Shown: piece after piece, positions 2,401-40,888 of the stretch
How the letters are laid out: each line of letters opens with the position of its first letter
Numbering within the stretch: the stretch's first letter is position 1
Assembly: GCA_016176555.1 (NCBI GenBank)
Contig: JACOWY010000002.1
Span: 1 to 49,755 of the forward strand
Length of the DNA: 49,755 nt
Direction of reading: 5' to 3'
From: Candidatus Chisholmbacteria bacterium
GTDB taxonomy: Bacteria; Patescibacteriota; Microgenomatia; UBA1400; JACOWY01
Position numbers and translations under genes: made by a program
Notes under the pieces: model-generated
Databases searched by the model: none
Seen by the model: only the letters and a program-made list of their open reading frames with translations
What the model was told of the DNA's origin: nothing

Positions 2401-3834
2401 ATGAAAGCTACATTTATCCGAGAATCGTTACCACAACAAATGGCAGGAAATATTCCCGAAGAGATACATGAGTTTTTTCGTCGGTTTGCGACCCAGGGGT
2501 TTGACATTTGGCTCGTGGGGGCGGGGGTGCGGGCGCTTTTGATGGACCAGCTAATGGTCAATCCCGATTTCACCACTAATGCGACACCTCAGGAGATGCA
2601 AAAGTTATTTCCAGATAGTTTTTATGACAATACTTTTGGCACGGTGGGAATACCTCAGAAAATCGTGCGGGGCGGCGACGAACGTGAAGAAGTGTTTGAG
2701 GTGACGACCTATCGGACTGAACATGGGTACAGTGACAAACGCCGGCCAGACAAGGTGGTATGGGGGAAAACTTTGGAGGAGGATTTGTCGCGGCGCGACT
2801 TTACCATTAATGCCATGGTCATTGGTTTAGATAAAAATCAAAAATCAAAAATAAAAAAGCAAAAATTATTATTGGTTGACCCTTTCAACGGTCGGGGAGA
2901 TTTGGAGAAGAAATTAGTCCGGGCGGTGGGTGAGGCGAGCGAACGCTTCCAAGAGGATGCGCTCAGGATGATGCGGGCGATTAGAATCGGGACCCAACTG
3001 AAGTTTACTATCGAAGAAAAGACGCTGGCGGCAATTCAAACAAATGCTCAGCTTTTAGAGCACGTGAGTAGAGAACGAGTGCGAGGGGAACTTTTAAAAA
3101 TTTTGGCTTCGGATCAGCCGGCGGATGGGGTGCTGTTACTTCGGGCTTCGGGACTTTTGCAGTACATCGTGCCCGAGATGCTCGCCATGCAAGGGGTAAA
3201 ACAAATTGGCCATCATATTTATGACGTATGGACACATGCGATTGAGTCTTTGAGAGGCTGCCCGAGCAAAGATCCGATCATCAGACTGGCGACGCTGCTA
3301 CACGATATTGGGAAACCCAAAACGGCCCAACCCCGTGATGGCAAAGAAGTAACGTTTTATGGCCACGAAGTGGTGGGAGCGCGGATGGTTAAGGATATGG
3401 CCGAACGGTTGCGATTTTCAAGGAAGGAAATTGAGCGACTGACGACTTTGGTGCGCTGGCACATGTTTGCTTATGATACGCAGATGACCGATGCGGCGAT
3501 TCGGCGGTTTATTCGCCGGGTGGGGGTAGATAATATTAACGATATGATGATGCTGCGGGTTGGTGATCGGGTGGGTGGAGGGAGTAAATCAACTAGTTGG
3601 AGGCTTCGGGAATTGCAGCAGAGAATCGGGGAACAATTGTATGAGCCTTTGACGGTGAAGGACCTGAAGATCGATGGGCACGACGTGATGAAGCTAGTTG
3701 GTATTAAGCCCGGTCCCGAAGTGGGGAAGATTCTGAATAAACTTTTTGAGGAAGTGATTGAAGATACGCGGAAGAATGAACGGGAATATTTGCTTAAACG
3801 AACGGAAGAGTTGCACAAAAACTCTAATAATTAA
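2401..3834 (+). CDS. cca: CCA-adding tRNA nucleotidyltransferase / poly(A) polymerase family protein with HD domain
   Basis: Head-domain motifs LVGAGVRALL and RRDFTINAM, plus the HD motif LLHDIGKP and GHEVVG. Confidence 0.85.
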   Translation: MKATFIRESLPQQMAGNIPEEIHEFFRRFATQGFDIWLVGAGVRALLMDQLMVNPDFTTNATPQEMQKLFPDSFYDNTFGTVGIPQKIVRGGDEREEVFEVTTYRTEHGYSDKRRPDKVVWGKTLEEDLSRRDFTINAMVIGLDKNQKSKIKKQKLLLVDPFNGRGDLEKKLVRAVGEASERFQEDALRMMRAIRIGTQLKFTIEEKTLAAIQTNAQLLEHVSRERVRGELLKILASDQPADGVLLLRASGLLQYIVPEMLAMQGVKQIGHHIYDVWTHAIESLRGCPSKDPIIRLATLLHDIGKPKTAQPRDGKEVTFYGHEVVGARMVKDMAERLRFSRKEIERLTTLVRWHMFAYDTQMTDAAIRRFIRRVGVDNINDMMMLRVGDRVGGGSKSTSWRLRELQQRIGEQLYEPLTVKDLKIDGHDVMKLVGIKPGPEVGKILNKLFEEVIEDTRKNEREYLLKRTEELHKNSNN

Positions 3835-4417: not shown

Positions 4418-5327
4418 GTTTTCTTTTTTCGAAGATGACTAAGAGAGGCGCTGCCGTGAACGTGCTGCTGTAGGTACCGGTGATGGTGCCGATGAGAAGA
4501 GCCAAGGCAAAATTTTTAGTGGTGTCGCCGCCTAAAAGATAGAGAGAAAGGAGCATGAAGATGATAGTCATGGAGTTATTGATCGAGCGGGCGAGGGTTT
4601 CGACGACTGATTTGTTGACTAAGGCTTCGAATGAGGCTTGGGGATATAAACGCCTGCTTTCCCGGATGCGATCAAAGACGACGATGGTGTCGTGGACTGA
4701 GAAAGAAAGAACGGTGAGAACGGCGGTGACAAACAGGGTGTCAACTTCTATACCTTTGACTACACCTAAAATACTGAAGACGCCCGCGAGAATGAAGGTA
4801 TCATGAAACATAGCGATGAGGGCCGCTAGCCCGAAGGTCAGTTCCCGGAAGCGCCAGGCAATAAAGAGCAAAATAAAAGTGGCGGCAATGGCAACGGCGA
4901 TGAGAGTTTTTTGCAAAAGTTCTTTGCCCAAGGTCGGGCCAACAGTCTCGAAACGAATTTCTTCAATCTCGCCGACTTTTTCTTCGAGTGTTTGTTTTAG
5001 TTCAAGGTGCTCTTCTTGACTCAGGGGTTTGGCGTGGATAATAAATGAACTTGCCCGCCCCTCGATCGTCACAATTCTATCGTCAGATAAAGACTCTTCT
5101 AGTGAAGGCTGTGGTTTTTCAGTATTTATTTTTATTTCCCAGACTGTACCACCCGTAAAATCGATCGAGGGTTTGAGGCCAAATTTGAGCAGGGAGATGA
5201 CGCCGGGAATGATGACCAATAGCGACAGGGCAAAGTAGATGAGGCGGTATTTCATGGGATGGGTTAACATTCTGAGTGAAACGAAGAACGTCGGCTGATT
5301 CGGCAGCTGCCGAAGAAGCGTAGACAT
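4407..5327 (-). CDS. secF: protein translocase subunit SecF
   Basis: Typical SecF multi-TM C-terminal half (HDTIVVFDRIRE). The ATG at 5327 lies 2 nt after the secD stop, but codons 1-20 are a copy of the hairpin repeat family. Alternative starts are at 5270 and 5255. Confidence 0.85.
   Translation of the reverse strand: MSTLLRQLPNQPTFFVSLRMLTHPMKYRLIYFALSLLVIIPGVISLLKFGLKPSIDFTGGTVWEIKINTEKPQPSLEESLSDDRIVTIEGRASSFIIHAKPLSQEEHLELKQTLEEKVGEIEEIRFETVGPTLGKELLQKTLIAVAIAATFILLFIAWRFRELTFGLAALIAMFHDTFILAGVFSILGVVKGIEVDTLFVTAVLTVLSFSVHDTIVVFDRIRESRRLYPQASFEALVNKSVVETLARSINNSMTIIFMLLSLYLLGGDTTKNFALALLIGTITGTYSSTFTAAPLLVIFEKRKHAH
5266..5323 (-). repeat. hairpin-repeat family copy (CTACGCTTCTTCGGCAGCTGCCGAATCAGCCGACGTTCTTCGTTTCACTCAGAATG)
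   Basis: Near-identical architecture to the copies at 9023-9079 and 40784-40839: CTACGC, then a CGGCAGCTGCCG hairpin, then ATCAGCCG, then a GTT..TTCGTT module. Confidence 0.7.
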
Positions 5328-5329
5328 AG

Positions 5330-6688
5330 TTATTTTTTACCTCTGACGGCAAAACGGATGAGAGAACGGGAGATGACGACACCGGTGAATAAACTGACGA
5401 TGATACCGAGGCCTAAAGTGATGGCAAAGCCCCGAACCAGTCCGCTTAAGGGGAGAAAGCTCCAATTCAGGGGATTAAACAAAATGAAGGCGGTGATGAG
5501 AGTGGCGAGGTTGGCGTCTTTAATGCTATCCCAAGCGCGGCCAAAGCCGAGCTCGACAGCCAGCGCCCAGGGTTTACCTAAGCGGAGCTCTTCTTTGAGG
5601 CGTTCAAAAATCAAAATGTTACTGTCAACTGCCATGCCAACGGAGAGAATAAAGCCCGCGAGACCCGGCAAAGTAAGGGTAATGGGGATGAGGCGGTAGA
5701 GACTTAAGGTAATGAGGCCGTAGATAAGGAGGCTTGAAGCGGCCACTAAACCTAATTTGCCGTAATAGGCGACCATAAAGATCACGACGACCGTGAGACC
5801 AATTAAACCGGCGCTGATACTTTTTTGCACTGATTCGGCCCCGAGGGTGGGGCCGACACTACGCTCGCTCACAATTTCTATAGGAGTGGGGAGAGCTCCG
5901 GCGTTGAGTTGAACGGCAAGCTCGCGCGCTTGTTCAGTGGTAAAGCCACCGGTGATGACGGCGTTGCCATCAGTTATTTCTTGTTGGACGATGGGGGCCG
6001 AGAGGGGGATGTCGTCAAGAAAAATGGCGACTGGTTTGCCGATATTTCTTTGGGTAATGTCAGCAAATTTTTTGGCCCCATCCTCGCTAAATTCTAGTCC
6101 GACCAAGGCTTCACCGGTGCCCCTTTGATCAAATTGCACTTGGGCCCGACGCAAGTCTTGACCGGTGAGACCAGTGGGGATGAGGTTAGTTAATAATTCG
6201 GCCGCGGAGCTCGCTTCGGGCAAATCGGGGTTAAGTTCACGGAAGTCAAGCTGAGCAGTTTGGCCGATGAGGGAGAGAGCACTGTCTATATTTTTGATCC
6301 CGGGGAGCTGGACACTGAGGCGATAGTCATCTTTTTCTTTGATTCTTTGGATGACTGGCTCGGCGACGCCGAAGAGATCAACCCGGCGGCGAATGACTTC
6401 TTCGGCGCTTTTCCAGGCGCTGTCTCGATCAGAATCTGGTATGTTGGTCATATCCAACTTTAAGACAACTTCAGTCCCTCCCTGGAGATCTAGACCTTGT
6501 CTGATGGTGGTGTCGCGGCTGAGGTGCCAAGGGCCGAGATCAAATTTGAGGGGGGGGCGGCGAATGGTGGTAGAGAGATTAATTGGCCCTTGGTGGATAT
6601 TGACTGGAAGATTTTCAGGCAGATTGAGGAGAACAACACTGACCAACAACAACAAGAACGCTACTAGGGCGATCGGTCTCAACTTCAT
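5330..6688 (-). CDS. secD: protein translocase subunit SecD
   Basis: 452-aa ORF with an N-terminal TM helix, a periplasmic domain, and a C-terminal 5-6 TM block containing MAVDSNILIFERLKEE. Confidence 0.9.
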   Translation of the reverse strand: MKLRPIALVAFLLLLVSVVLLNLPENLPVNIHQGPINLSTTIRRPPLKFDLGPWHLSRDTTIRQGLDLQGGTEVVLKLDMTNIPDSDRDSAWKSAEEVIRRRVDLFGVAEPVIQRIKEKDDYRLSVQLPGIKNIDSALSLIGQTAQLDFRELNPDLPEASSAAELLTNLIPTGLTGQDLRRAQVQFDQRGTGEALVGLEFSEDGAKKFADITQRNIGKPVAIFLDDIPLSAPIVQQEITDGNAVITGGFTTEQARELAVQLNAGALPTPIEIVSERSVGPTLGAESVQKSISAGLIGLTVVVIFMVAYYGKLGLVAASSLLIYGLITLSLYRLIPITLTLPGLAGFILSVGMAVDSNILIFERLKEELRLGKPWALAVELGFGRAWDSIKDANLATLITAFILFNPLNWSFLPLSGLVRGFAITLGLGIIVSLFTGVVISRSLIRFAVRGKK

Positions 6689-9000: not shown

Positions 9001-9022
9001 TAGGCAGTAGCTTTCTTAATAT

Positions 9023-9150
9023 CTACGCCTCTCCGGCAGCGGCCGGATCAGCCGATGTTACTCACTTCGTTCGTAATGGACTACGGTCGCCTAAGGCGAC
9101 CCGTCGTTATGTCTGAGCCTCGCTGACGCTCGGCCGACGTAACTCGCTAA
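9023..9150 (+). repeat. composite of GC-hairpin repeat modules
   Basis: Module A is at 9023-9054 (CTACGCCTCTCCGGCAGCGGCCGGATCAGCCG). Module B is at 9055-9079 (ATGTTACTCACTTCGTTCGTAATGG). Module C is at 9081-9110 (CTACGGTCGCCTAAGGCGACCCGTCGTTAT). The modules recur at 19097-19145, 40297-40327, 40784-40839, 5266-5323 and 35222-35280. Confidence 0.75.
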
Positions 9151-9156
9151 AGCTCG

Positions 9157-9630
9157 TTATCCGGTAGCCCTGGTAATCACAGCACGCTCTTCTTTGGAGA
9201 GCGTGTATCCCGGGCTTTTGCCGCGACTGATTTTTTTGGCGTAGATTCTGGTTTGGTCGCGACTGTGTAAAGAGCTTATCACAACCCCGTTATCCTGTCC
9301 ATCAAGTAGAGCGAGACAAAAACTCTGATCCCCCCCAGTATCGCTAAAGGGATTGTAACGGATGAAACCTATTTTTTGAATGTGAGGCAGAAGACGGATA
9401 TGCAACTCTTTCATAGCTTTCTTAAGCTCGTCTATTTCGCTGGCGGTAGTTTGATGGTCTTTTCTGAGGGTTTCTAAAACGGAGCGAAGGTCTCTTTTAT
9501 CCTTCCCATCAAACAGGGTGCGGAAACGAGCCTCACTCCGAACCAGCCAAAAGGTGACTAAACTCAGCCATAAAGTGAAGATGACTAGTATAGCTATAAA
9601 GGTAGGTGTTGATAACAAACCAGCGGACAT
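9157..9630 (-). CDS. DUF4446 family protein
   Basis: N-terminal TM helix, a coiled-coil segment, and GFIRYNPFSDTGGDQSFCLALLDGQDNGVVISSLHSRD, which is typical of DUF4446. Confidence 0.75.
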   Translation of the reverse strand: MSAGLLSTPTFIAILVIFTLWLSLVTFWLVRSEARFRTLFDGKDKRDLRSVLETLRKDHQTTASEIDELKKAMKELHIRLLPHIQKIGFIRYNPFSDTGGDQSFCLALLDGQDNGVVISSLHSRDQTRIYAKKISRGKSPGYTLSKEERAVITRATG

Positions 9631-9689
9631 GTGGGTCGATTGTATCTATGGAGTCGTTTTATGTGCAAGAGACAGGATTTTTCTGTTAA

Positions 9690-9831
9690 CTCTACGCCTC
9701 TCCCGCCGATTCGGCGGGCTCGGCCGAGGTAGCGCTTTATTAGAATTTTTACGGATCTCTTGCTATCTCTACGTGTTGCTTCGCAACGCCGAGGTAGCGC
9801 TTTATTAGAATTTTTACGGATCTCTTGCTAT
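9690..9831 (+). repeat. tandem duplication: two units, each CTCTACG + hairpin + identical 43-nt core
   Basis: The core CCGAGGTAGCGCTTTATTAGAATTTTTACGGATCTCTTGCTAT occurs at 9724-9766 and 9789-9831 with 43/43 identity. The hairpins differ: CCCGCCGATTCGGCGGG versus GTTGCTTCGCAAC. Confidence 0.9.
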
Positions 9832-9840
9832 ATTGGCACT

Positions 9841-10080
9841 GTGACAAAGCGGCGGCGAACCAGAACGCAAAAACAGCAGGCTCGACACGAATTTATCTTT
9901 AAGGTGGGAGGAAAGAGTATTAGTGCACCGCTCGCCTCAACTAAAAAACCACCTTCCAGCCAGAGCAAGGATTTGTTTCACTACGACCCTAAACTCGTTA
10001 AAGCTGACTTGACAAAGACGCTGATTCTTTCCATACTGGCTATAGGAGCGATAGTTTCGCTTTTTTTAATGGGTAGATAA
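9841..10080 (+). CDS. small basic protein with C-terminal TM helix
   Basis: The ORF-track entry 9760-10080 begins inside the repeat. The GTG at 9841 lies 6 nt after a TATATT box. The C-terminal segment LILSILAIGAIVSLFLM is hydrophobic. Confidence 0.4.
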   Translation: MTKRRRTRTQKQQARHEFIFKVGGKSISAPLASTKKPPSSQSKDLFHYDPKLVKADLTKTLILSILAIGAIVSLFLMGR

Positions 10081-10123
10081 AGGAGGGTCCCGAAGAACGA
10101 GGTGACAAATTAAATCATATATA

Positions 10124-10171
10124 GCTATGCTTCGCTGAGGCTCAGCCGCTCTTTTTCGCGAAGCTCAAAAT
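10124..10171 (+). repeat. hairpin-repeat family copy (3' module GCCGCTCTTTTTCGCGAAGCTCAAAAT)
   Basis: Its 3' half matches 40809-40839 at 29 of about 30 positions, and also matches the complement of 35222-35250. Confidence 0.8.
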
Positions 10172-10254
10172 AAGAAATCATAAATCATATATCTTATATA
10201 TATGATATATGATATTTGATATTTGATATTTATCTTGATTGGGGGTGAGAGCGA

Positions 10255-10398
10255 ATGGAATTCTATTGTGTAAAGTGTCGCACCAAGCGACAAACTGACG
10301 ATTTTCAAGAAGTGACGACGAGGAACAATCGCAAAGCAGCTAAGGCTAAGTGCCCCGTGTGTGGTACGGGCATGTATAGGATAATGGGGAAGGCCTAG
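10255..10398 (+). CDS. small zinc-ribbon protein (47 aa), DUF5679-like
   Basis: The ORF is below the track cutoff. It reads MEFYCVKCRTKRQTDDFQEVTTRNNRKAAKAKCPVCGTGMYRIMGKA, with two CxxC pairs. A strong SD (GGGGGTGA) lies at 10241-10248. Terminators follow downstream. Confidence 0.7.
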   Translation: MEFYCVKCRTKRQTDDFQEVTTRNNRKAAKAKCPVCGTGMYRIMGKA

Positions 10399-10527: not shown

Positions 10528-10582
10528 ACATCACTGGCAGTAAAAGACCGGGTCTTTTGGCAAGACCCGGTCTTGAAGCCTA
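10528..10582 (-). terminator. 55-nt repeated double-palindrome hairpin, copy 1
   Basis: AAGACCGGGTCTT-TTGGC-AAGACCCGGTCTT forms a 13-bp stem. On the minus strand it is followed by TTTTAC. It lies about 95 nt 3' of the 10677 gene and is near-identical to 15105-15159. Confidence 0.5.
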
Positions 10583-10676
10583 ACGGAGATACTTTGTTTG
10601 CACACCTAAGCGCTTAAAAATCGAAGGCCTGTATTCCAGAAACAATCGCGACCCCAAACCCTGCTCGGATACTTAT

Positions 10677-15104: not shown

Positions 15105-15159
15105 ACATCATTGGCTGTAAAAGACCGGGTCTTCTGGCAAGACCCGGTCTTGAAGCCTA
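15105..15159 (-). terminator. 55-nt repeated double-palindrome hairpin, copy 2
   Basis: It differs from 10528-10582 at 3-4 positions. It lies 3' of the 15283-15528 ORF and 21 nt upstream of the rdgB start. Confidence 0.5.
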
Positions 15160-15282
15160 TCATAGTCATCTTGCCTTCACATAGTGACTTCAAAACGAAA
15201 GTGAATTGCGAAATTCGGGTGATTTTCCGGCAAAGAGAAGGACATGAAGTTCATGTCTTTCTCTCTACTTTCTTTGATTGGG

Positions 15283-31922: not shown

Positions 31923-32032
31923 CATGCGTACTTTTTCTTTGGAAAAGAAAAAGCTACGGCAAAAAGAAAGCTGGAGAAACTCTGCGCGCCCGCCCGCCGG
32001 CGAGGCAGGCAAAGCTTGCTCGAGTTTCTGAT
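31923..32032 (-). repeat. about 90-110-nt two-hairpin module, copy 1 (with 21-nt insertion)
   Basis: CATGCGTACTTTTTCTTTGGAAAAGAAAAAGCTACGGCAAAAAGAAAGCTG.AGAAACTCTGCGCGC[ins]AAAGCTTGCTCGAGTTTCTGAT. Apart from the insertion and 1 mismatch it matches 32928-33016. Confidence 0.9.
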
Positions 32033-32044
32033 TTGTATCTGTTT

Positions 32045-32719
32045 TTACTTTTTCCTCCCCATGTACCACTCGTCCATCATTTTGGCGACTATGTCTTTGC
32101 TGCCCAAACCAAGAGCCAGGCCAAAGCCAAGGCTTAAGGCGCCGACGACGCCAAAGAAGATGGCTTGAATAAACTCGCTGGCAATGTTTAGCTCGGCGAT
32201 GGCCGCCAGGGTGACAAACACCATGATGGTGTAGCTAGTGACTTTACCCAGCAATCGGGCCACTTTGGGATTGACGTTACTGACTGCTCCTTTGACCATG
32301 CCTTCAAGCACTCCGGCGATGATAATGCCTAAGGCAATAATGACCACCGCCGAAACAACGTTGGGGATGTAACTTAAGATATTTTTGAGAACTTCTGAGA
32401 CAGCGGTGAGGCCAAGTTGGTTTAACGTGGCGATGACAAAGATGAGCAAAATGATCCAACGAACTATTTGGCCAATTATTTTTTCTATGGTGTGGGGTAT
32501 TTCTGCCTGCTTGAGAAATTTTTCGACGCCGGTGTTTTGGAGTAATTTTTCTAATCTGATTGTTTGCAAAAACGACACGGTCAGCTTGGCTGCCCAGTTG
32601 GATAAAATGAGACCAACGAGAAAAATTACTAAGGCCCACAATAACGAGGGGACAAAATTAGCTAGCTCCTGTAACACGGAACTTCCGGCGCTAAATACAA
32701 TACTTTGTGTGCTTTCCAT
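32045..32719 (-). CDS. membrane protein with conserved TM-helix repeats (CmpX/mechanosensitive-channel-like)
   Basis: Repeated P(S/N)LLWALVIFLVGLIL-type helices. Strong SD GAAAGGGGGTGA upstream of the ATG. Confidence 0.55.
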   Translation of the reverse strand: MESTQSIVFSAGSSVLQELANFVPSLLWALVIFLVGLILSNWAAKLTVSFLQTIRLEKLLQNTGVEKFLKQAEIPHTIEKIIGQIVRWIILLIFVIATLNQLGLTAVSEVLKNILSYIPNVVSAVVIIALGIIIAGVLEGMVKGAVSNVNPKVARLLGKVTSYTIMVFVTLAAIAELNIASEFIQAIFFGVVGALSLGFGLALGLGSKDIVAKMMDEWYMGRKK

Positions 32720-32927: not shown

Positions 32928-33016
32928 CATGCGTACTTTTTCTTTGGAAAAGAAAAAGCTACGGCAAAAAGAAAGCTGTAGAAACTCTGCGCGCAAAGCT
33001 TGCTCGAGTTTCTGAT
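32928..33016 (-). repeat. about 90-nt two-hairpin module, copy 2
   Basis: Immediately 3' of the RNase P RNA on the minus strand. Hairpins are GTACTTTTTCTT-TGGA-AAGAAAAAGCTAC and AGAAACTC-loop-GAGTTTCT. Confidence 0.9.
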
Positions 33017-34438: not shown

Positions 34439-35470
34439 TCAATGTAGTTTAGGGTACCAGTTTTTTATTTCGGCCACAACTTTGTTTGGGTAGCCAACTT
34501 CACTGACGTCAGACCAGTGAATTTTTTGGGTTTTTCTAAACCAGGTGAGTTGGCGGCGAGCATATTGTTTTTCAGAGGTGACCCAGAGTTTAAGCGCTGC
34601 CTTTTGACTCAATTTTCCTTCTAGATATGCTCTCCAAAATTGGTAGCCGGTAGCAGAAAAGGCTGGGAGTTGTTGCCAATTGCTATATTGCCTGATTAGG
34701 GTCCGCACTTCTTGGTCCATGTTCTTTCCTGCTCTTTTTCTAACCCTTTCTTCTATCAAAGCATCGAGGGTTTTTTGGGGGGCAACTAAGCCTATCCACA
34801 AGGGGTTATATGTAGGGCTCGTAACCTTAGGTGGTGGGTGGTGGCGGAGATAGAGAGCAACTTCTATGCTTCTCACGAGACGGCGAGGGTTGTTTTTATC
34901 TGAAGAGTTTAATTGATTAAAGTGCTTTCGATTCACCTTTTTTAATTCCTGCTGCAACTCAGTGACACTTTTTGATCCTAGAGTTTGGCGGAGGGTTTTA
35001 TTTTGGGGGATAAAAATAGTCTGCGGACTTTTGAGAAGACTATTAATGTATAGGCCGGTGCCGCCAACAATGATGGACAGCTTATTTCTTCTTTGGATGT
35101 CATTTATGACCGCTGATGCAATGCGGACAAAATGGCTAACGCTAAACTCCTGATTGGGCTTGGCAAGATCGTAGCCCCAGATTTTCGTGCCGTTACCATA
35201 AAACGGAATTTTTTTATTTTTATTTTGAGCTGGCGAAAAAGAGCGGCCGATCCCGCCGCTTGAGGCGGGGGAGGCGTAGCTATATTTGATATTTGATATT
35301 TGATATTTGATATTCCGAGGGATGTCTTTGCCCGTGCCGACATTCATACCTTTATACACCTGCCGTGAGTCAGCAGAGATAATTTCACCGGAAAACTTAT
35401 GAGCGAGTTTGAGGGCGAGGGAGGTTTTGCCGGTGGCGGTGGGGCCGCAAATGATGAGAACTTGACGCAT
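34439..35470 (-). CDS. miaA: tRNA dimethylallyltransferase
   Basis: P-loop GPTATGKTSLALKLA, plus SADSRQVYKGMNVGTGK and IIVGGTGLY. It carries an about 35-aa repeat-derived insert. Confidence 0.9.
   Translation of the reverse strand: MRQVLIICGPTATGKTSLALKLAHKFSGEIISADSRQVYKGMNVGTGKDIPRNIKYQISNIKYSYASPASSGGIGRSFSPAQNKNKKIPFYGNGTKIWGYDLAKPNQEFSVSHFVRIASAVINDIQRRNKLSIIVGGTGLYINSLLKSPQTIFIPQNKTLRQTLGSKSVTELQQELKKVNRKHFNQLNSSDKNNPRRLVRSIEVALYLRHHPPPKVTSPTYNPLWIGLVAPQKTLDALIEERVRKRAGKNMDQEVRTLIRQYSNWQQLPAFSATGYQFWRAYLEGKLSQKAALKLWVTSEKQYARRQLTWFRKTQKIHWSDVSEVGYPNKVVAEIKNWYPKLH
35222..35314 (-). repeat. hairpin-repeat family copy plus (ATATTTG)x4.7 microsatellite inside miaA
   Basis: The minus-strand sequence CTACGCCTCCCCCGCCTCAAGCGGCGGGATCGGCCGCTCTTTTTCGCCAGCTCAAAAT (35280 down to 35222) matches the intergenic copies at 40784-40839 and 10124-10171. 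The 7-mer tract is at 35282-35314. Confidence 0.85.
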
Positions 35471-40167: not shown

Positions 40168-40394
40168 TTATTACAAGACAGCCGAATACCACGTTCATGT
40201 AAACTGAACGTGGATGAAGGCGGTCTTAATAGCATGATCCGCCAACTGGCGGAGAATACAAAGCGTAACATACTTCTTCTCTCGAAGAGAGAATATCTAC
40301 TCCTTCGGCCGATGTTACTGACGTAATACCCCGGCCTCTCAGGCCGGGGAAGTTTATTCAGGCTCGGACGAGAGCGAAAGAGTCACAACGAAGA

Positions 40395-40669: not shown

Positions 40670-40783
40670 TTCTAAACAACTAATCTTGACTACACAGGTT
40701 TTACCATGTAAGTGCCTATAGTTCAAGTTATTTTAAAAGTGAGATCTAGAAATTGGTTGTATGGAGAATGGAAATTAGTAATA

Positions 40784-40839
40784 GCTACGCCTCCCCGGCA
40801 GCTGCCGGATCAGCCGCTCTTTTTCGCGAGGCTCAAAAT
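40784..40839 (+). repeat. hairpin-repeat family copy
   Basis: GCTACGCCTCCCCGGCAGCTGCCGGATCAGCCGCTCTTTTTCGCGAGGCTCAAAAT, flanked by GGAAATT-type periodic tracts. Confidence 0.8.
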
Positions 40840-40888
40840 GGAAATTGGAGATTGGAAAGTAGCTAGATTCTATACAGCCAATTTCTAA

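Follow-up and report, generated by a model that had tools for sequence, protein, structure and literature searches.

A GC-rich palindromic repeat apparently inserted in frame at a heptanucleotide array within the miaA gene of a Candidatus Chisholmbacteria bacterium

On a 49,755-nucleotide stretch of DNA from a Candidatus Chisholmbacteria bacterium (contig JACOWY010000002.1 of GenBank assembly GCA_016176555.1, positions 1 to 49,755; hereafter the window), the tRNA-modification gene miaA carries within its open reading frame (ORF) a tandem array of a 7-nt unit and, immediately after it, a GC-rich hairpin element whose relatives lie between genes. We consider it likely that this element is a modular repeat resembling the REP and BOX repeats of other bacteria, that it occupies a permissive loop of MiaA within a heptamer array that was already in place, and that it is translated with the enzyme and is probably neutral. 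A preliminary description of this DNA had proposed that an intergenic-type repeat lies in frame within miaA and accounts for its extra length, and a gap at this site in homologous proteins bears that proposal out; its sequence statements on the repeat, the array and the shared motifs were all reproduced, as was the translation that it quoted for a block lying wholly within the miaA ORF, with residues N53-Y63 supplied by the array and S64-N83 by the GC-rich element. The features on which the argument turns are these:

34439 to 35470, minus strand: miaA coding sequence, 343 aa, an intact ORF in which every family-invariant residue is kept (alignment A1).
35282 to 35314, minus strand: heptanucleotide array, (AATATCA)x4 then AATAT on the coding strand, codons 53-63, detected with Tandem Repeats Finder (TRF).
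35222 to 35281, minus strand: inserted 60-nt GC-rich element, codons S64-N83, SYASPASSGGIGRSFSPAQN, without counterpart in the 25 aligned homologues.
35271 to 35279, minus strand: head motif CTACGCCTC of the element, with exact matches at 9023, 9692 and 40785, kept in the seven-copy alignment A2.
35252 to 35269, minus strand: central GC hairpin predicted by RNA folding, CCCGCC, loop UCAAGC, GGCGGG, with a 6-bp stem.
35233 to 35250, minus strand: box TCGGCCG overlapping an exact 15-mer, GCCGCTCTTTTTCGC, present in three copies of the repeat.
35222 to 35230, minus strand: tail GCTCAAAAT, the 3' end of a T1-type element, identical in the three T1 copies.

Read on the minus strand from 35281 to 35222, the element is AGCTACGCCTCCCCCGCCTCAAGCGGCGGGATCGGCCGCTCTTTTTCGCCAGCTCAAAAT. 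It is present as first described, but it measures 60 nt instead of 59, and the other T1 copies are 57 and 49 nt long, where T1-type denotes copies having the tail GCCGCTCTTTTTCGC..GCTCAAAAT in common. Its GC content is 0.63, that of the array is 0.12 and that of the window, which is not AT-rich overall, is 0.48. The 15-mer occurs exactly three times in the window (at 10145, 35233-35247 and 40813), and gapped identity to the miaA copy amounts to 51/61 (84%) for the copy at 40783-40839 and 43/61 (70%) for that at 10123-10171. Four partial relatives share a common plan, in which the head CTACGCYTC is combined with a GC palindrome of variable sequence and the box TCRGCCG. The copies outside miaA are as follows:

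40783 to 40839, plus strand: intergenic T1 copy of 57 nt, between an RNase Y gene (Pfam match) and an HU-like gene.
10123 to 10171, plus strand: intergenic T1 copy of 49 nt, without the central hairpin, followed by (AAATCAT)n and (ATATTTG)x4.9 at 10175-10231.
9021 to 9080, plus strand: related copy with head, palindrome and box and another tail (family D4, 78% over 64 nt to 40779-40842).
9690 to 9766, plus strand: related copy that agrees with the 5' half of the miaA copy in head, hairpin (CCCGCC..GGCGGG) and box (TCGGCCG) but has a third type of tail.
5253 to 5324, minus strand: related copy (inverted pair I1) that follows the stop codon of secD and precedes the likely start of secF.
40290 to 40322: related partial copy on the plan of head CTACGCYTC, GC palindrome and TCRGCCG.

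On sequence grounds we regard this family as more than a chance resemblance. The miaA copy is a mosaic, with head, hairpin and box like those of the 9690 copy and a tail like those of the 40783 and 10123 copies; the CCCGCC..GGCGGG hairpin type is found again in the copy at 9690, and the remaining copies have CCGGCAGCNGCCGG. The CTAC head adjoins the palindrome in six of the seven copies, the 10123 copy reading CTAT, and copies stand in both orientations relative to neighbouring genes. An outer stem is formed in the two intergenic T1 copies (GCCTC/GAGGC at 40783 and GCTTCGC/GCGAAGC at 10123, with one compensatory difference) and is broken in the miaA copy. All three T1 copies adjoin 7-nt arrays: the 40783 copy has 7-nt units on both sides, GGAAATT before and (AAATTGG)x3.4 at 40835-40858 after, and TRF reports (ATATTTG)x4.7, of period 7 with 100% matches, at 35282-35314 in miaA and (ATATTTG)x4.9 again at 10198-10231. 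Movement of array and element together from the region near 10.1 kb, as one composite copy, was considered and rejected, the element having the opposite orientation relative to the ATATTTG array that the two sites have in common. In the sense orientation all three frames of the miaA copy and of the 40783 copy are open, so that a sense insertion needs only a length divisible by three (60 nt in miaA, 57 nt in the 40783 copy).

Comparison with homologues separates the element from the array. In an alignment of 26 MiaA sequences, exactly 20 residues (S64-N83 or, equivalently, Y65-K84) are missing from each of the 25 homologues. In the closest of them, L081 (62% identity), the same codons are made up of five array units, AAGTTCA AAGTGCA AAATTCA AAGTTAA AAATTAG, which run straight into the common ...IPYYGNGTKIWGYDL without the GC-rich element; the miaA sequence of the window that would directly adjoin the array if the element were absent is AAAAATAAAAAAATTCCG. 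Because the 25 homologues have a gap here and the L081 array is unbroken, the 60-nt block is a true insertion. The array, by comparison, has counterparts. Its unit length of 7 nt is not divisible by three, it lies within the ORF and it encodes NIKYQISNIKY (N53-Y63), and most close Microgenomates homologues in the same alignment have a 7-aa-periodic peptide at this site, such as FEFRISNFEFG, RYQISDIRYQ or KWQNSNVKWS; where the homologue DNA is visible it is a 7-nt array there too, (ATTTCGA)x4 in L165, (AATTCGC)x4 in L010 and (AAATTCC)n in L085. We take the 7-nt array to pre-date the GC insertion and not to be specific to this lineage. The preliminary description had treated the block of about 111 nt as one unit, which does not hold, since the L081 array exists without the GC-rich element and the array is not part of the insertion; the gap that it expected in homologues is present, at 20 aa and not about 35. 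It had also named an alignable homologous segment of the same length as evidence against its reading, and such a segment was found for the array half of the block and not for the GC-rich half.

The product of the 343-aa ORF, the tRNA dimethylallyltransferase MiaA, matches the Pfam family IPPT (E=1.3e-46; an IPPT/IPT match) and MiaA entries of the PDB, the best named relatives are Microgenomates-group Patescibacteria, including Chisholmbacteria and Woesebacteria, and the gene order around it is miaB, miaA, an AI-2E-type permease gene and RNase P RNA. Against solved MiaA structures the HMMER match is split (query 4-49 and 98-322), with about 48 residues in place of about 10, in agreement with the earlier remark that this MiaA is unusually long. 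Predicted tryptic peptides covering the insert are YSYASPASSGGIGR and SFSPAQNK. An AlphaFold model of the protein has a mean predicted local distance difference test score (pLDDT) of 90, and its best structural matches are the tRNA-bound E. coli MiaA structures 3foz/2zm5, with template modelling (TM) scores of 0.77 by query and 0.86 by target. In this model the array-encoded residues 56-65 (E56-65 by DSSP) pair confidently with residues 84-91 as the strands of a β-hairpin, and residues 70-79, within the insert, form the sole internal stretch with pLDDT below 50. As modelled, the insert is the tip of an accessory β-hairpin, the most tolerant location; the preliminary description had suggested structure prediction as a check for a surface loop, and the prediction agrees with it, giving a low-confidence hairpin tip on a fold that is otherwise that of MiaA.

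Additionally, the arrangement was compared with Logan contigs from other sequencing runs, chosen by proteins identical to the neighbours of miaA. L166 and L167 both run from miaB into the array, matching the window at 100% identity, and end at 35287. On the other side, L168 (100% identity) begins at 35248 and L170, which represents a second strain (99.5%), at 35260; each of these begins inside the element and continues into downstream miaA. The 3' 27-39 nt of the element are contiguous with downstream miaA in L168 and L170, which stem from two other runs, and the element-miaA junction is thereby reproduced independently, a result to be weighed against the artefact concern raised earlier. None of the 31-mers of 35190-35330 recurs in the window, and recurring k-mers were rejected on that account as the cause of the Logan breaks. 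Over 1,924 nt, all 10 differences between L170 and the window are confined to a 91-nt patch at 35075-35165, which lies immediately downstream of the hairpin, changes LAKPNQE to LVNPDQE and looks like a small gene-conversion or imported tract.

To place this loop in a wider context, the loop following GTGK was extracted from 119 miaA genes out of GTDB genomes and metagenomes. It is 10 aa long in most Patescibacteria and 14 aa in Bacteroidota, and in 45 of the 119 genes it spans 17-50 aa. At a threshold of 0.85 or more for the period-7 score across four units, period-7 arrays occupy 13 of these loops (7.7 kb in total), versus 5 genes elsewhere in 86 kb, and no array of period 5, 6, 8, 9 or 10 was found at this threshold in the 119 genes. 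All five arrays outside this first loop (L009, L011, L085, L096, L130) sit at one second site, directly after the NPRRLIRAIEIA (RAIEIA) helix, where the window itself has GGTGGTG x2.1 (34830-34844, minus strand), translated HHPPP. Across the window, qualifying segments number 84 for period 7 and 18 for period 6, with none for periods 5 and 8-11, and the arrays are mostly intergenic. In other lineages, several of the extracted loops carry GC hairpins of their own:

L082: a different insert, also of 60 nt, that interrupts (AATATCG)n 9 nt away from the position seen in the window.
L011, 2555-2575: a 21-nt palindrome within (AGTGGAA)n.
L113, 3087-3117: a perfect 31-nt palindrome with 14-bp stems, translated.
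L117, ~770-850: a hairpin of ~90 nt containing GTCATCCTGAGCG..., translated; the whole 144-nt loop folds at -57.6 kcal/mol.
L108: a GGGGG..CCCCC hairpin.

These five inserts are unrelated in sequence. Membership of the L082 insert in the family described here was tried and rejected, since it has only CTACGCC and its length in common with the miaA element and its alignment is no better than those of shuffled sequences (220/500). A second CTACGCC of L082 lies in an apparent RNase P RNA, identified by synteny with the window, no second copy of the L082 insert was found in 21 kb of L082, and a scan of 83 fetched loci with the head-box pattern gave no match. As separate observations, the perfect 20-nt palindrome CCTGCCTGCCGGCAGGCAGG, the core of the L011 insert, occurs in five unrelated Patescibacteria loci (L011 at 2555-2575, L093 at ~5966-5985, L007 at ~2940, L018 at ~17636 and L126 at ~4187) and is twice in frame within miaA, in different loops: loop 1 of L011, and L093 as 'YFEG-LPAGRQG-KIV'. 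In the Prevotella/Bacteroidota-type miaA genes L138, L041 and L077, the same loop has 7-nt arrays of the CACACTC/TTCCACC type (scores 0.67-0.95, adding 3-4 residues), and the hotspot is therefore not limited to Patescibacteria. Within the window, an AAAAATC-type 7-nt array at 2829-2864 is translated as KNQKSKIKKQK in the plus-strand ORF 2401-3834, whose product, judged by eye, is presumably of the CCA-adding/poly(A) polymerase type and has an HD domain; if so, a coding heptamer array would be present in a second tRNA enzyme. Another 7-nt array lies at the start of ORF 21158.

We propose the following sequence of events. Slippage would generate heptamer arrays, abundant in these genomes, that would last only where they lie between genes or in loops that tolerate insertions. 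One of these arrays, that in MiaA, probably became a strand of an accessory β-hairpin in Microgenomates, in the surface loop just after GTGK, and in the present lineage a GC-rich palindromic repeat of the REP/BIME, BOX or RPE type, without coding capacity of its own, probably then inserted at the end of the array. The 60-nt, open-frame copy would be transcribed and translated with miaA, as a Ser/Gly/Pro/Ala-rich hairpin tip of 20 residues that is probably disordered; the enzyme would stay intact, and the insert would survive as something harmless, not as something useful. The element probably arrived by transposition that favours heptamer arrays rich in AT, or else by recombination between repeat modules.

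A number of points weigh against this account. Membership of the family, the vacant site of the homologues, the place of the insert in the model and the junction in independent assemblies are shown; translation of the insert, its neutrality and the way in which it arrived we infer. The low pLDDT of the insert would be expected whether or not it is disordered, as no other aligned sequence has the insert, and the conservation of the array-encoded β-hairpin across the clade may point to a function of the loop. The independent contigs break at 35287 and at 35248/35260, so that none of them crosses 35261-35286, and these breaks could be due to heterogeneity, to further genomic copies or to loss of coverage. 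Copies of the family, genic and intergenic, were counted over 50 kb of the genome. The GTDB representative genomes that were scanned contain no close relative (best MiaA, 41% identity), and a search of JGI metagenomes for the element tail (GCCGCTCTTTTTCGC N2-3 GCTCAAAAT) returned nothing, the window itself being unmatched there too. On the side of mobility, no mechanism was seen: none of the ten window ORFs scanned encodes a transposase, including REP-associated tyrosine transposases (RAYTs), and a candidate beside the repeats, the ORF at 9157-9630 flanked by two copies, proved to be DUF4446, the nine other large ORFs being housekeeping genes. The ends of the element, AGCTACGCC... and ...GCTCAAAAT, do not repeat each other in inverted orientation, and the sole inverted pairing, an inner GCYTC/GARGC stem of 5-7 bp, is absent in the miaA copy. 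In all three T1 copies the dinucleotide AT stands just before the element and again as its last two bases, which in AT-rich flanks carries little weight. Finally, a single family targeting arrays across genomes is not shown by the loop inserts.

A more far-reaching version of these events, which we think unlikely, is that an active and previously undescribed system operates in Patescibacteria, in which arrays are continually made and serve as landing pads for short GC-rich palindromes, or in which miaA is phase-variable. If this were so, the array-plus-palindrome system would remodel insertion-tolerant enzyme loops, namely loop 1 of MiaA and the post-RAIEIA loop, and the CCA-adding-type enzyme would be a further candidate target; the miaA array would be unstable in populations and would toggle i6A37 tRNA modification; and the repeated contig breaks and the 91-nt patch of L170 would be traces of ongoing rearrangement.

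It is distinctly unlikely, in our estimate, that the element, with or without the array, instead acts in cis to regulate miaA and the permease gene that follows it, whether as an internal terminator or attenuator, as a hairpin for RNase processing or mRNA stability, or as DNA bound by a protein. Elsewhere, the stability of mRNA can be influenced by REP and BOX elements, hairpins recur in the MiaA loop of several lineages, the 20-nt palindrome CCTGCCTGCCGGCAGGCAGG is identical in five unrelated genomes, and a scan flagged a terminator-like stem on the coding strand at 35260-35242 (AGCGGC..GCCGCT followed by CTTTTTCG). However, terminator-like matches in the promoter and terminator scan were at chance level (2 found vs 1.6 expected from shuffles), and this stem is not kept in the other copies. 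Single-sequence folds of both strands were no better than shuffles, with z scores of -0.1 to -2.0 (for the miaA copy with its 6-bp GC stem, -1.4 sense and -2.0 antisense), and Rfam 15 gave no match at gathering or permissive thresholds, the best having E>=1.4 and at most 17 bits vs gathering scores of 43-88. Copies lie in both orientations relative to flanking genes, the closest homologues manage without the element, and the hairpins of other lineages are unrelated in sequence.

Heptamer tracts within coding sequence can drive phase variation, as in neuO of E. coli K1, and a gain or loss of one unit in the miaA tract would frameshift the gene and switch off i6A37 modification. The earlier statement that a slip of one unit would frameshift the gene is correct in principle. 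The tract is perfect over its 4.7 units and that of L081 is degenerate (period score 0.76), which implies recent slippage or homogenization; near-perfect arrays recur in the MiaA loop in many lineages, and Logan contigs of two runs terminate within the array at one and the same base. As in neuO, a 7-nt tract lies within an ORF and its unit number must keep the frame. Known phase-variable tracts are longer, however: neuO has tens of units and documented on/off switching, and 4.7 units is short by that measure. Loop lengths are also identical among all full-length members of ten related 90%-identity MiaA clusters, with no variation in array length and no frameshifted allele seen, the array encodes a confidently modelled β-strand that is conserved as protein, and arrays are also found between genes, where no switch is needed. 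We therefore hold phase variation of this gene to be highly unlikely. One candidate for array instability, L164, a variant of the Chisholmbacteria-type MiaA P0124, was discarded as uninterpretable, its contig ending about 75 nt upstream of the array in unrelated sequence. At positions 1-80 it has this unrelated sequence upstream of the array, and from EFGGKK on it is the same as the cluster; a rearrangement or insertion at the array and an assembly end are both possible.

Comparably small is the chance we give to co-option of the array-encoded β-hairpin, and perhaps of the insert too, as a protein feature such as a tRNA- or partner-binding arm. The length and pattern of the hairpin are conserved across Microgenomates homologues, it is modelled confidently, and its Lys- and Asn-rich strands would suit contact with RNA. 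On the other hand, members of the same clade (P0026, P0040, P0048, L004 and L088) do without the hairpin, having loops of 8-9 aa, the DNA that encodes it is a homogenized microsatellite, which speaks against constraint at the codon level, and the 20-aa insert is unique to this lineage and of low complexity.

The remaining two explanations are scarcely credible. Removal or skipping of the segment, which had been left open earlier, could take the form of an intron- or intein-like element or of translational bypassing, as in T4 gene 60 and the byp elements of yeast mitochondria, which Lang et al. in 2014 reportedly described as short GC-rich mobile inserts in coding sequence; the likeness to byps is superficial, no take-off codon with a matching landing codon beyond an intervening stop is apparent, and a segment of 60 nt that is a multiple of three and free of stops has no need of removal, is too short for an intein or a self-splicing group I or II intron and belongs to no Rfam family. 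A chimeric join that placed an intergenic repeat inside miaA would fit the Logan breaks on either side of 35261-35286, but the 3' part of the element is joined to miaA in two other runs, one of them from a distinct strain, the upstream contigs agree with the window into the array, the miaA copy is identical to no other copy and has no 31-mer in common with any, the join is exactly in frame and stop-free, and analogous inserts exist in unrelated assemblies.

The preferred interpretation, a REP/BOX-like repeat in a permissive loop, has precedents among known systems. Rickettsia palindromic elements (RPEs) are in-frame inserts in genes (Ogata et al. 2000, as summarised in PMC10969869). Going by that summary, the likeness lies in a dispersed, non-autonomous palindromic repeat that is found both between genes and in frame in a housekeeping gene, at a position compatible with the fold; RPEs are translated with their host protein, and here translation is predicted from the ORF. 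The summary gives RPEs as elements of about 100-150 bp, each family having one conserved peptide, in Rickettsia only, whereas the present element measures 49-60 nt, is built of modules, belongs to Patescibacteria and lies within an array of heptanucleotides, with one clear intragenic copy in 50 kb; the two are alike in the kind of event, and similarity in sequence would not be expected. To call the insertion unusual, as was done earlier, is fair for miaA, but the kind of event is known from Rickettsia (PMC10969869).

In other respects the family resembles the REP elements and bacterial interspersed mosaic elements (BIMEs) of proteobacteria and the BOX, ERIC and RUP repeats: its members are short, GC-rich imperfect palindromes with a CTAC/GTAG head and interchangeable modules, and they occur in both orientations, mostly between genes within operons. 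Unlike REPs, which are extragenic by definition, they have no RAYT or other transposase among the ten scanned ORFs, their CTAC head is on the same strand 5' of the stem, and there is no sequence relationship. An excess of heptameric simple sequence repeats (SSRs) in bacteria has been attributed to slippage, with examples in the GGGAATC-type repeats of Xanthomonas and Nostoc and the short tandemly repeated repetitive (STRR) sequences of cyanobacteria (PMC4692102). The arrays of the window similarly show a period-7-specific excess of short arrays that are mostly intergenic and vary between relatives. In contrast to the SSRs of PMC4692102, their units are A/T-rich with an AAAT core, not G-rich; in contrast to known heptanucleotide SSRs generally, they are also coding, with three frames read to give 7-aa-periodic peptides, and the same two loops of one enzyme are used across the phylum. 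Nesting of an element inside a simple-sequence array is further reminiscent of the microsatellite-targeting transposable elements of guayule and rice (PMC5907723) and of miniature inverted-repeat transposable elements that carry tandem repeats; such mobile elements lie preferentially within arrays and so give rise to nests of array, element and array. Microsatellite-targeting elements, however, are eukaryotic and have defined terminal inverted repeats and target site duplications, and targeting here would follow from three copies. A limited literature search found no description of either phenomenon in Patescibacteria, also known as the Candidate Phyla Radiation (CPR), which is weak evidence. 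Set against these precedents, the present case differs in its phylum, in the small size and modular make-up of the element, in the position of that element inside a microsatellite that is coding, and in the repeated occupation of the same two loops of one enzyme.

Several further observations concern repeats elsewhere in the window. At 5253-5327 (minus strand), a related copy takes up all of the space from the secD stop (5330) to what is probably the start of secF (MKYR...). Its 72 nt are free of stops and in frame with an upstream ATG (5327) that follows the secD stop by 2 nt, and it may be translated as an N-terminal extension of SecF. The non-coding stretch 9631-10255 holds two repeat copies, several arrays and an exact 44-nt duplication (9723-9766 and 9788-9831) whose starts are 65 nt apart. 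A separate repeat family is represented by 77-nt copies at 10528-10604 and 15105-15181, which are 83% identical and contain the hairpin AAGACCGGGTCTT...AAGACCCGGTCTT. Finally, a 67-nt direct repeat (31923-31989 and 32928-32994, 99% identity, 1,005 nt apart) flanks the ORF 32045-32719, and three Logan contigs all end within it, at 32949.

If the account given here is correct, it extends the notion of selfish DNA inside genes from Rickettsia to the CPR, whose genomes are tiny and usually regarded as streamlined, and to a case in which the host sequence is itself a microsatellite whose units, read in all three frames, make up a β-strand. Across the phylum, 7-nt arrays and unrelated hairpins would have colonized the same two loops of a conserved enzyme repeatedly, which would explain the odd 7-aa-periodic and 'PAGRQ'-type peptides in CPR proteins as well as length inflation among orthologues. 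Sites of this kind call for caution from annotators and assemblers, given that contigs break there, and they may serve as natural markers of the insertion-tolerant positions of MiaA. Should the arrays prove unstable in populations, microsatellite slippage would be linked to the control of a tRNA modification that tunes translation.

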